A DNA stretch of 64,000 nucleotides from Gammaproteobacteria bacterium (lineage in GTDB: Bacteria > Pseudomonadota > Gammaproteobacteria > Ga0077536): contig JAURMM010000021.1 in the NCBI GenBank assembly GCA_030830685.1, positions 2,462-66,461 of the forward strand, given 5' to 3'. Shown piece after piece: positions 22,545-41,737 of the stretch (positions within the stretch are counted from its first letter, which is position 1; each line of letters opens with the position of its first letter). Position numbers and translations under genes: made by a program. The notes under the pieces were generated by a model. That model worked only from the letters and a program-made list of their open reading frames with translations. It was not told the origin of the DNA and ran no database searches.

Positions 22545-22621
22545 TGGCGGAGTGGACGGGGCTCGAACCCGCGACCCCCGGCGTGACAGGCCGGTATTCT
22601 AACCAACTGAACTACCACTCC
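22545..22621 (-). tRNA. tRNA-Asp (GUC)
   Basis: The reverse complement is GGAGTGGTAGTTCAGTTGGTTAGAATACCGGCCTGTCACGCCGGGGGTCGCGGGTTCGAGCCCCGTCCACTCCGCCA. It folds as a cloverleaf with anticodon GTC, and CCA is encoded. Confidence 0.95.
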
Positions 22622-22636
22622 AATGTTCTGCATAGG

Positions 22637-22712
22637 TGGTGGGTGCTGAGGGGATCGAACCCACGACCTTCGCCTTGTAAGGGCGACGCTCTCCCGGCTG
22701 AGCTAAGCACCC
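22637..22712 (-). tRNA. tRNA-Val (UAC)
   Basis: The reverse complement is GGGTGCTTAGCTCAGCCGGGAGAGCGTCGCCCTTACAAGGCGAAGGTCGTGGGTTCGATCCCCTCAGCACCCACCA, with anticodon TAC. Confidence 0.95.
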
Positions 22713-36169: not shown

Positions 36170-36247
36170 TCCTCCTGCCTGCTCCAAACTGCCCCCCGTG
36201 CGGGTGAGGTGTACGCGCGCCTGAATCGTTTGTTGCTTGCCTCGATT

Positions 36248-36301
36248 TGTCAGTTTTTGTTTACAGTTTTGTTTGACATTCAAAATTGACACTTCTAGAG
36301 T
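36248..36301 (+). promoter_or_regulatory. puc promoter region with two PpsR/CrtJ-type palindromes
   Basis: Site 1 is TGT-cagtttttgttt-ACA (36248-36265, a perfect TGT-N12-ACA). Site 2 is TGA-cattcaaaattg-ACA (36274-36291, one mismatch). They are 8 bp apart. One candidate sigma70 promoter is TTGACA (36273-78), 17 bp, TAGAGT (36296-301). An alternative is TTTACA (36260-65), 15 bp, CAAAAT (36281-86). Confidence 0.55.
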
Positions 36302-36399
36302 GACCCTGCCCGGAATGGGGGTTTCTTGATGCCCTTACCAGGCACCGCGCGTTGCTCCCGCGACGGGCGGAAAACAAATGCTTATCTGAGGAGGATGGC

Positions 36400-36570
36400 A
36401 TGGCTATGGCTAATGACCTTGACGATCCGAACAGGGTTTGGCCCACCGGCTTGACAATTGGCGAGTCGGAGGAGCTGCACAAGCACGTCATTGATGGAGC
36501 GCGCGTGTTTTTTGCGATCTCCGTGGTGGCGCATATCCTGGCGTACGTCTACACCCCGTGGTTTGGTTAG
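36400..36570 (+). CDS. pucB: Light-harvesting complex 2 (peripheral antenna) beta polypeptide
   Basis: [35 protein letters not shown] aligns with LH2 beta chains (for example Rps. acidophila [35 protein letters not shown]), including both His residues and the Arg after DG. ATG 36400 lies 5 nt after GAGGAGGA; a second in-frame ATG is at 36406. Confidence 0.9.
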
Positions 36571-36582
36571 GAGGGCACACAG

Positions 36583-36729
36583 ATGAACCAAGGAAGAATC
36601 TGGTGCGTGGTGAAACCGACAGTCGGTCTGCCGCTTTTTCTGGGCACCGTGCTGGTGATTTCGCTGCTTGTGCACCTTGCAGTGCTGACCAATACCACCT
36701 GGTTCTCGGCCTTCCTTCAGGGGGGTTGA
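36583..36729 (+). CDS. pucA: Light-harvesting complex 2 (peripheral antenna) alpha polypeptide
   Basis: This gene is absent from the ORF track because it has only 49 codons. ATG 36583 lies 7 nt after GGAGGG. The translation [48 protein letters not shown] aligns without gaps to Rps. acidophila LH2 alpha ([48 protein letters not shown]...). The BChl-ligand His31 is conserved. Confidence 0.9.
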
Positions 36730-36763
36730 GTGCCGGACCCGTTGGCGCAAGCTGGCGGTTCCC

Positions 36764-36808
36764 GGACAGTACCGGCCCTGAGGAATCAGGTGCCGGTGCC
36801 GTCTGTCC
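36764..36808 (+). promoter_or_regulatory. Intercistronic pucA-pucC stem-loop
   Basis: GGACAG-T-ACCGGC-CCTGA-GGAA-TCAGG-T-GCCGGT-GCCGT-CTGTCC forms 17 bp in three stacked helices capped by a GGAA tetraloop. No U-run follows. Confidence 0.55.
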
Positions 36809-41260: not shown

Positions 41261-41336
<76 letters not shown>

Positions 41337-41363
41337 TGAATCCAGGGAATCATCGAAGATGAA

Positions 41364-41440
41364 TGGGGCGAGCGATGGGGATCGAACCCACGACACCAGG
41401 TACCACAAACCTGTGCTCTACCAACTGAGCTACGCCCGCC
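41364..41440 (-). tRNA. tRNA-His (GUG)
   Basis: The reverse complement is GGCGGGCGTAGCTCAGTTGGTAGAGCACAGGTTTGTGGTACCTGGTGTCGTGGGTTCGATCCCCATCGCTCGCCCCA, with anticodon GTG. The extra 5' G(-1) opposite C73 is typical of tRNA-His. Confidence 0.9.
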
Positions 41441-41528
41441 ATTGAATCTTCATTCAGTCTGCGGAAATGTCCGGGCCGGGATTCAAAGCCCGCCCGACTC
41501 CGGGGCCTTGGCCCTCCAGGCGAAGCGG

Positions 41529-41605
41529 TGGCGCGCCTGGCAGGATTCGAACCTGCTACCCTCGGCTTAGAAGGCCGATGCTCTATCCGAATGAGCTACA
41601 GGCGC
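41529..41605 (-). tRNA. tRNA-Arg (UCU)
   Basis: The reverse complement is GCGCCTGTAGCTCATTCGGATAGAGCATCGGCCTTCTAAGCCGAGGGTAGCAGGTTCGAATCCTGCCAGGCGCGCCA, with anticodon TCT. Confidence 0.9.
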
Positions 41606-41660
41606 ATTTCAAACCCGGGCCAACCCTTGGTCAACCAATCGTCGTTGCGGTGGGAAATTT

Positions 41661-41737
<77 letters not shown>

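Follow-up and report, generated by a model that had tools for sequence, protein, structure and literature searches.

We analyzed a 64-kb stretch of gammaproteobacterial DNA, called the window throughout. It contains a genuine pucA gene, encoding the alpha apoprotein of a light-harvesting complex 2 (LH2) antenna, within an intact pucB-pucA-hairpins-pucC-def operon. The alpha chain has no hydrogen bond donor at the positions that hold the C3-acetyl groups of the coupled bacteriochlorophylls (BChls). The best overall explanation, to which we give a probability of about 0.78, is a functional, blue-shifted LH2 alpha chain that likely belongs to a fixed peripheral antenna. The blue shift itself, to a band below 835 nm, is very probable. 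The predicted coupled-pair band lies at 800 to 826 nm; the sequence yields this range and not a value.

The pucA gene starts with ATG at 36583 and stops at 36727-36729. A ribosome-binding site (GGAGG) lies 8 nucleotides (nt) upstream of the start. PucA matched the Pfam family LHC (PF00556) with an E value of 6.5e-14 and 52.3 bits (cutoff, 23). It matched 11 LH2 alpha chains in the PDB, each with E < 1e-9. In HMMER alignments, its residues 1 to 48 lay on residues 1 to 48 of 1IJD_A, 9DWZ_A, and 1KZU_A with no gap (E = 1e-17 to 1e-19). A first-pass annotation, made from the DNA letters, had described such an ungapped fit to the chain of Rhodopseudomonas acidophila, here Rhodoblastus (Rbl.) acidophilus, and these alignments bear it out. 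The alignments to 8Z81, 7ZE3, and 7PBW were also gap-free. By tblastn, the alpha chain of Rbl. acidophilus strain 10050 was 62.5% identical to PucA over 48 ungapped residues. Since the alignments are gap-free, PucA takes the Rbl. acidophilus numbering.

PucA shows each property of an LH2 alpha chain that a sequence can reveal. Its key residues are Met1 (the B800 ligand after N-carboxylation), Ser27, His31, Phe41, Phe44, and Leu45. His31, a BChl ligand, aligns with His31 of 1IJD, 9DWZ, 7ZE8, and 8Z81. Both ligands of the coupled BChl pair, alpha-His31 and beta-His45, are kept. The B800 site appears intact, with Met1 in the N terminus MNQGRIW and a correctly spaced beta-His and beta-Arg. The tail reads Trp40, Phe41, Ser42, Ala43, Phe44, and Leu45 and ends at Gly48. 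Solved complexes have their C3-acetyl donors at alpha 41, 44, and 45; here these residues are Phe, Phe, and Leu, all of them non-donors. The first-pass annotation correctly placed F44-L45 on two acetyl-bonding positions, as the gap-free alignment to LH2 and LH3 alpha chains confirms. It also ascribed the same pair to the natural B800-820 complex of Rbl. acidophilus, and the pair is seen in 1IJD_A, which ends in TTWYAAFLQGG. The B800-820 chain 9DWZ_A ends in TTWFPAFQQGG, and 1KZU_A is a B800-850 chain. The chain does stop at Gly48, as annotated, but the short C terminus is no special trait: 88 of the 120 nearest clusters have alpha chains of 51 amino acids (aa) or fewer, and most end in QGG or GG.

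The best PDB matches of PucB were the LH2 beta chains 7ZE3_B (2e-25) and 7ZDI_B of Rhodopseudomonas (Rps.) palustris. Read from the alignments, its His27, Arg35, His45, and Trp54 are beta His12, Arg20, His30, and Trp39 of Rbl. acidophilus. There, Arg20 makes the B800 acetyl hydrogen bond, His12 and Arg20 are the B800 partners, and His30 is a BChl ligand. PucB also has Tyr49 and Tyr51, and its Trp54 stands at His+9. The complex is probably a nonameric peripheral antenna of the Rbl. acidophilus or Rps. palustris LH2 type.

Conservation and copy number

The identical PucA is encoded on at least 31 contigs of up to 70 kb from many samples, so its sequence is not an assembly error. The protein was already public. 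Lakes and rivers were the source of the contigs, which belong to metagenomes and metagenome-assembled genomes (MAGs); a MAG from river surface water carries PucA on a 4.5-kb contig (L011). The host has not been cultured; it is a freshwater gammaproteobacterium and presumably lives as an aerobic anoxygenic phototroph. The contigs represent at least four lineages. Relative to the window, the TonB receptor is 86 to 92% identical, PucC 81%, and the deformylase Def 72 to 77%. PucC thus differs by 19% and Def by 23 to 28%, while PucA and PucB keep 100% identity. The coding parts of pucB and pucA differ between lineages by 9 to 13 nt, and all of these differences are synonymous. A more distant syntenic lineage (P0002) has a PucA that is 92% identical and a PucC that is 67% identical, and it also has F44-L45. 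On these comparisons, F-L is a fixed, selected state of the whole clade and neither an error nor the mark of a decaying gene.

Silent sites were compared between window positions 36246..36805 and three contigs (L001, L002, and L092). At four-fold-degenerate sites, pucB and pucA differ by 4 to 13% between lineages, and the adjacent pucC and def differ by 51 to 62%. Near-identity extends to the promoter block and the hairpins. The low silent divergence of this cassette of about 0.6 kb has two possible explanations: the mRNA is very abundant and its silent sites are under unusually strong selection, or lineages recently exchanged the cassette by recombination.

We found one pucBA pair. No other antenna gene turned up in the window when alpha and beta chains of LH1 and LH2 were used as tblastn queries. 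No genome appeared twice among the best 80 of 215 genome hits, the MAG with the 100%-identical contig (L011) included, and tandem pucBA copies were rare among these hits. The first-pass annotation had advised looking for further copies with YW or YY; none was found in the window or among the best 80 of 215 hits. Two candidates for a second copy were rejected. P0002 is a syntenic ortholog with F-L, 92% identical. P0004, with F-W, comes from a different organism, in which pufBALMC adjoins the module.

The same annotation took the chain for a low-light or spectrally tuned variant. That reading implies an alternative copy in a multigene family. It found no support: one pucBA was seen, and PucA is identical across lineages with a PucC identity of 81%. 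In Pseudohaliea rubra, the 804/821-nm antenna is constitutive and independent of light and oxygen (PMC3679898). By analogy with P. rubra and the Roseobacter group, a fixed, sole peripheral antenna is more likely than a low-light alternative in the style of LH3.

Predicted band and alternatives

LH2 that is blue-shifted through loss of the alpha-44/45 donors has been known since 1992-2001. Blue-shifted LH2 is also already known in aerobic gammaproteobacterial phototrophs. In the nine LH2 structures of Qian et al. (2022), two C3-acetyl hydrogen bonds go with a band near 850 nm, one with about 825 nm, and none with about 800 nm (PMC9618040). LH3 keeps one such bond, from alpha-Tyr41 to the alpha-BChl, and has its band at 820 to 824 nm (PMC9618040, Table 1). 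PucD-LH2 of Rps. palustris has none and absorbs at 803 nm (PMC9618040). The YY-to-FL mutant of Rhodobacter (Rba.) sphaeroides, which the first-pass annotation rightly cited as blue-shifted, is the B800-826 complex Y44F/Y45L, with the bond from Ser27 to the C13(1) keto group of the beta-BChl kept (PMC9618040). Qian et al. call for a triple mutant to find out the contribution of this bond (PMC9618040). The LH2 of Halorhodospira (Hlr.) halophila (S27/Y41/F44/F45) absorbs at 835 nm (PMC11802735). According to a 2025 review, the LH4 antennae of Roseobacter, Dinoroseobacter, and Roseicyclus share F44L45 and have a single band at 804 to 806 nm; they are constitutive and the sole peripheral antennae (PMC12654162).

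We arranged these complexes by residues 27/41/44/45, with sequences verified in the PDB and wavelengths taken from PMC9618040 and PMC11802735. The series runs from A/F/Y/W (856-858 nm) through S/L/Y/Y (850 nm), S/L/F/Y (839 nm), S/Y/F/F (835 nm), S/L/F/L (826 nm), and A/Y/F/L (820-824 nm) to V/V/F/M (803 nm). The window chain is S/F/F/L. Counting acetyl bonds alone would make it PucD-like, at 803 nm. The nearest experimental analogue would put it at 826 nm. That analogue is the sphaeroides double mutant, because Ser27 is kept and may still bond to the C13(1) keto group of the beta-BChl. Together, these values bracket the expected band at about 803 to 826 nm. A band at 820 nm as in LH3 and a band near 805 nm as in LH4 are roughly equally likely.

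With no donors at 41, 44, and 45, the acetyl groups would be neither held in plane nor polarized. The site energies of the BChls would then rise, and the "B850" band would move to the blue. The spectrum would show either two resolved peaks (a B800-820 doublet) or one enhanced band near 805 nm in which the two merge. Such a band would fall where water absorbs near-infrared light least, which fits the idea that planktonic phototrophs are tuned to the near-infrared window of water. The first-pass prediction of a blue-shifted band thus stands, given the missing acetyl donors. Its "LH3-like, 820 nm" assignment does not follow from F44-L45 alone, since Tyr41 of LH3 is Phe here and F44-L45 also occurs at about 805 and at 826 nm. 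The rule that F44-L45 means B800-820 is unsafe. With different residues at 41 and 27, the same pair goes with bands at 803-806, 820-824, or 826 nm. The finding has modest value: it would add one more uncultured freshwater gammaproteobacterial lineage with a peripheral antenna expected at about 800 to 826 nm instead of 850 nm.

(a) B800-only antenna. The alternative that survives best is an antenna like LH4 or High-800, in which the band collapses to about 800 to 810 nm and merges with B800. We consider this a serious prospect, at somewhat less than an even chance. Complexes with no hydrogen bond at C3(1) absorb near 800 nm, and PucD (V41/F44/M45) does so at 803 nm (PMC9618040). The LH4 antennae of aerobic anoxygenic phototrophs (804-806 nm) share F44L45 and are constitutive sole peripheral antennae (PMC12654162). 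The beta chain of PucD-LH2, 7ZE3_B, is the best PDB match to PucB, marginally ahead of others. Against these, the window chain has Ser27 where PucD has Val, and the only engineered F44-L45 complex that keeps Ser27 stayed at 826 nm. The comparison with the Roseobacter chains covered F44L45, as given in the review. Duquesne et al. (2011) reportedly ascribe the High-800 spectrum of Roseobacter LH2 to the surroundings of the C13(1) carbonyl and to a serine of the alpha chain.

(b) True LH3 equivalent. The chain could instead form a resolved B800-820 complex, used at low light or low temperature in place of a B800-850 complex encoded elsewhere. This is possible but doubtful. The C-terminal AFLQGG is identical to that of 1IJD_A, and P. 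rubra, a gammaproteobacterial aerobic phototroph, absorbs at 804/821 nm. The sphaeroides mutant that combines F-L and Ser27 has its band at 826 nm. Against this reading, Tyr41, the sole acetyl donor of LH3, is Phe here, although it may be dispensable for a band near 820 nm, as 9DWZ_A, a deposited B800-820 alpha chain, also has Phe41. Further, no second pucBA was seen in the window or among the best 80 of 215 genome hits, the F-L allele is fixed across several lineages, and the LH3-type complex of P. rubra is constitutive and not light-regulated.

(c) Possible Ser27/Phe44 class. The pair F44-L45 is not rare. We surveyed the 120 nearest protein clusters, formed at 90% identity. The pairs at 44/45 were YW in 27, FF in 25, FL in 20, FW in 19, FI in 16, and FM in 8. 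Phe44 variants are the majority among these environmental relatives, and 69 of the 120 combine Phe44 with a non-donor at 45. Their F-L, F-F, F-I, F-M, and F-W pairs on a near-constant backbone are a natural series in which spectroscopists could gauge tuning by the C13(1) keto bond. In the genome collection, F-L is also found in MAGs labeled Rhodovibrionaceae, Alphaproteobacteria, Rariloculaceae, Rhizobiales, and Steroidobacteraceae. Among 191 unique alpha chains (P0001-P0120 and loci L011-L090), 130 have Ser27 and Phe44, 45 have Ala27 and Tyr44, and 15 are mixed, with a Fisher p of 3e-29 that ignores phylogeny. In the first group, the window chain is a typical case. Tentatively, and with rather low confidence, it may represent a large, coherent, uncharacterized environmental LH2 class with Ser27, Phe44, and a short alpha chain of about 48 aa. 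The class would span MAGs of Alpha- and Gammaproteobacteria, Myxococcota, and Gemmatimonadota.

If this class is real, its band position would be set by the hydrogen bond from Ser27 to the C13(1) keto group and not by acetyl bonds. It would be the natural counterpart of the triple-mutant experiment called for by Qian et al. (2022). Assembly would use two dedicated partners, a puc-linked deformylase and a YflT-like "APLS-repeat" protein. The promoter-pucBA-hairpin cassette, with 5 to 10 times less silent divergence than pucC and def, may be swapped between lineages by recombination.

(d) Ordinary B800-850 antenna. Other residues might compensate for the loss of Tyr44 and Trp45 and make it spectrally silent, which we consider improbable. 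Phaeospirillum molischianum and Marichromatium purpuratum do use beta-Trp donors instead of alpha 44 (PMC9618040), and the window beta chain has Trp54 (His+9), Tyr49, and Tyr51. LH3 and PucD-LH2 have the same beta-Trp(+9) and beta-Tyr and are both blue-shifted, so compensation by these residues is unlikely. All solved or engineered complexes of the acidophilus, palustris, or sphaeroides type that lack the donors at 44 and 45 absorb at 835 nm or below.

(e) Points against a functional, fixed blue-shifted antenna. Several observations weigh against the preferred reading. The band position for S27/F41/F44/L45 is an extrapolation from other residue combinations. The genome scan covered the best 80 of 215 hits, MAGs are incomplete, and a divergent second pucBA is possible. 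The TGT-N12-ACA palindrome, present in a single copy before pucB, is not enriched across the window (8 found versus 8.7 expected). A Pfam survey found no puf, bch, or reaction center genes in the window, and we infer the phototrophy of the organism. This absence is usual, since puc operons are as a rule located apart from the photosynthesis gene cluster (PMC12654162). The presence of a gene does not establish its expression. Congregibacter litoralis has pucBA, and no LH2 was detected in it under laboratory conditions (PMC2654016). A silent or decaying operon remnant, which the C. litoralis case and the lack of reaction center genes in the window would favor, is nevertheless highly improbable, as PucA and PucB show zero amino acid changes against 19 to 27% in the adjacent PucC and Def, the promoter block is invariant, the hairpins are conserved, and the ribosome-binding site, pucC, and def are intact.

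Operon and neighboring genes

The coordinates of all features are given in Table 1. The pucB gene ends 12 nt upstream of pucA, and pucC starts 97 nt downstream of it. In essentially all related loci, pucC follows pucBA.

Table 1. Features of the window, numbered from its first letter
Feature	Position	Strand	Evidence or remark
puc-associated repeat protein, 239 aa	35419..36138	+	5' of pucB; family-less
Promoter/operator block	36246..36330	+	Near-invariant in four lineages; DNA 5' of the block unalignable
TGT-N12-ACA palindrome, PpsR/CrtJ-type consensus	36248-36265		Sequence match
-35 element, TTGACA	36273-36278		Spacer of 17 nt to the -10 element
Second TTGACA	36287
-10 element, TAGAGT	36296-36301
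pucB, LH2 beta apoprotein, 56 aa	36400..36570	+	Pfam LHC 3.3e-10; alternative start 36406
pucA, LH2 alpha apoprotein, 48 aa	36583..36729	+	Open reading frame, Pfam LHC, ungapped PDB matches
Two adjacent strong RNA hairpins between pucA and pucC	36735..36805	+	Folding
pucC, MFS-type LH2 assembly factor, 476 aa	36827..38257	+	Pfam PUCC PF03209 1.4e-142
def, peptide deformylase, 170 aa	38254..38766	+	Pfam PF01327 2.3e-46; TIGR00079 1.4e-42
Stand-alone LOV-like PAS protein, 132 aa	40746..41144	-
tRNA cluster Lys-His-Arg-Pro	41261..41737	-	Ordinary-looking
tRNA cluster Asp-Val	22545..22712	-	Ordinary-looking

(a) Promoter and hairpins. The promoter block is about 85 nt long and lies about 100 to 150 nt upstream of pucB. 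A promoter scan found 1 site in it versus 0.1 expected. This conserved promoter of the sigma-70 type, which has one PpsR-type palindrome immediately 5' of it, would drive the operon. The position and conservation of the palindrome are suggestive of a PpsR/CrtJ role. The two hairpins have a minimum free energy of -50.4 kcal/mol (z = -4.4), and 0 of 200 shuffled sequences were equally stable. Sister lineages L001 and L002 have nearly the same hairpin sequence. Judging from other puc operons, the pair probably acts as a stabilizer or attenuator of the mRNA and sets the pucBA:pucC ratio.

(b) Peptide deformylase. The def start codon overlaps the pucC stop codon (ATGA). Def contains all of the catalytic motifs GLAAPQ, ESCLS, and HELDH. 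The window def has no adjacent fmt. Among related loci (L013-L086), def lies directly downstream of pucC in 54 of 57 with a short alpha chain and in 0 of 11 with a long one. LH2 alpha chains retain Met1, and its carboxylated N terminus ligates B800, which makes a dedicated deformylase a plausible maturation factor. The puc-linked enzyme may free the amine of alpha-Met1 for this N-carboxylation. The ten top-ranked of 34 literature matches contained nothing relevant on a puc-linked deformylase.

(c) Repeat protein. This protein has no family match in Pfam or NCBIfam. Its model has an N-terminal alpha/beta domain of about 100 aa (predicted local distance difference test score above 90 for residues 1-100), which is followed by six copies of the repeat AAPLSxxLGLxxL. 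Members of the family have 4 to 12 or more copies of AAPLSxxLGLxxLS (alignment A2). All 95 of 95 homologs are annotated as hypothetical, and 10 of 30 members have a weak match to YflT (PF11181). The fold has no significant PDB match; the best hits, at E = 0.43, were generic ferredoxin-like folds. The gene adjoins pucBA in 66 of 75 loci, at one of three places: before pucB, in the gap between pucA and pucC, or behind pucC. Cultured carriers of the puc-linked def and repeat genes include Salinarimonas rosea and Algihabitans albus. Both genes beside pucBAC encode candidate LH2 maturation or assembly factors. One locus (L095; GCA_025491035.1, JAOQID010008371.1, 3141..10569) of another organism has the repeat protein, pucB, pucA (F44-W45), pucC, and def directly next to the reaction center operon pufBALMC. 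The puc module can therefore belong to the photosynthesis gene cluster.

(d) Rest of the window. The window otherwise encodes housekeeping genes. These include clpA, ilvD, a VKOR-domain protein, MatE, oligopeptide ABC transport, ppiD, lon, and others. It also encodes pyruvate dehydrogenase E1, phosphoenolpyruvate synthase, and clpX, clpP, and tig, the last three assigned by synteny with contig L010. The order tig-clpP-clpX-lon-ppiD fits Gammaproteobacteria. A horizontal transfer island was rejected on composition, as the GC content is 60.7% in the puc region and about 61% overall, and uniform. The LOV-like protein has Pro in place of the adduct-forming Cys (TPRILQG versus NCRFLQG). Its PDB matches were the FAD-binding PAS domain of MmoS (1e-22) and then phototropin LOV domains (3e-19). 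As a puc regulator it was rejected, because it is confined to the lineage of the window and absent from the sister lineages. The four-gene tRNA cluster lies about 2.5 kb downstream of the puc operon, and the two-gene cluster lies next to ppiD and lon.

Comparison with known systems

The window chain appears to work like the blue-shifted LH2 variants; sequence by itself does not fix the named spectral type. We found no paper for the PDB entries 9DWZ, 9EK8, and 9LT4.

(a) LH3 of Rbl. acidophilus 7050 (1IJD). The two alpha chains align over 48 ungapped residues (E = 2e-18), and A43-F44-L45-Q46-G47-G48 is identical. The His31 ligand, the MNQG N terminus for B800, and the ligand pattern of the beta chain are also shared. 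LH3 has Tyr41, its sole acetyl donor, and Ala27, whereas the window chain has Phe41 and Ser27. The F44-L45 signature of LH3 is thus present and the Tyr41 donor is absent, although 9DWZ_A lacks that donor as well. LH3 is one product of a multigene family and is switched on by low light or low temperature; the window gene was seen in one copy and is fixed across lineages.

(b) Rba. sphaeroides Y44F/Y45L (B800-826, 7PBW background). No other experimental complex combines F-L with Ser27. It shares Ser27, Phe44, Leu45, and a non-donor at 41 (Leu there, Phe here) with the window chain. Its value of 826 nm was taken at 77 K. Unlike the window chain, it is engineered, and its backbone is another one: PucA scores about 59 bits against 7PBW_AA and about 72 bits against Rps. 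palustris PucE (7ZE8_A).

(c) PucD-LH2 of Rps. palustris (7ZE3, B800-only, 803 nm). The alpha chain matches at 65.7 bits, the beta chain is the best PDB match (2e-25), and neither alpha chain has a donor at 41, 44, or 45. In contrast to the window chain, PucD has Val27, Val41, Met45, and a C-terminal extension. Its complex has a gamma subunit that binds additional BChl, and cells make it only at low light. The window chain resembles LH4 in lacking every acetyl donor (F41/F44/L45 versus V41/F44/M45) and departs from it in having Ser27 as a further potential hydrogen bond partner.

(d) LH2 of Hlr. halophila (8Z81, 835 nm). It is the second-best alpha match (71.9 bits) and the third-best beta match. 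Like the environmental S27/F44 class and the window chain, it carries Ser27, Phe44, and an ISLLVH motif. It differs in Tyr41, which makes one acetyl hydrogen bond, in Phe45, in its 71-aa alpha chain, and in forming a double-ring co-complex with LH1.

(e) Antennae of aerobic phototrophs. These comprise the complexes of P. rubra (804/821 nm), Limnohabitans planktonicus (799/813 nm), and Roseobacter denitrificans, Dinoroseobacter shibae, and Roseicyclus mahoneyensis (804-806 nm). As with the window operon, their setting is the oxic water column, and puc lies outside the photosynthesis gene cluster. The blue-shifted complex is their sole, constitutive peripheral antenna; F44L45 is ascribed to the LH4 group by a review. 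The window lineage differs from them as an uncultured freshwater gammaproteobacterium, known here from its genes.

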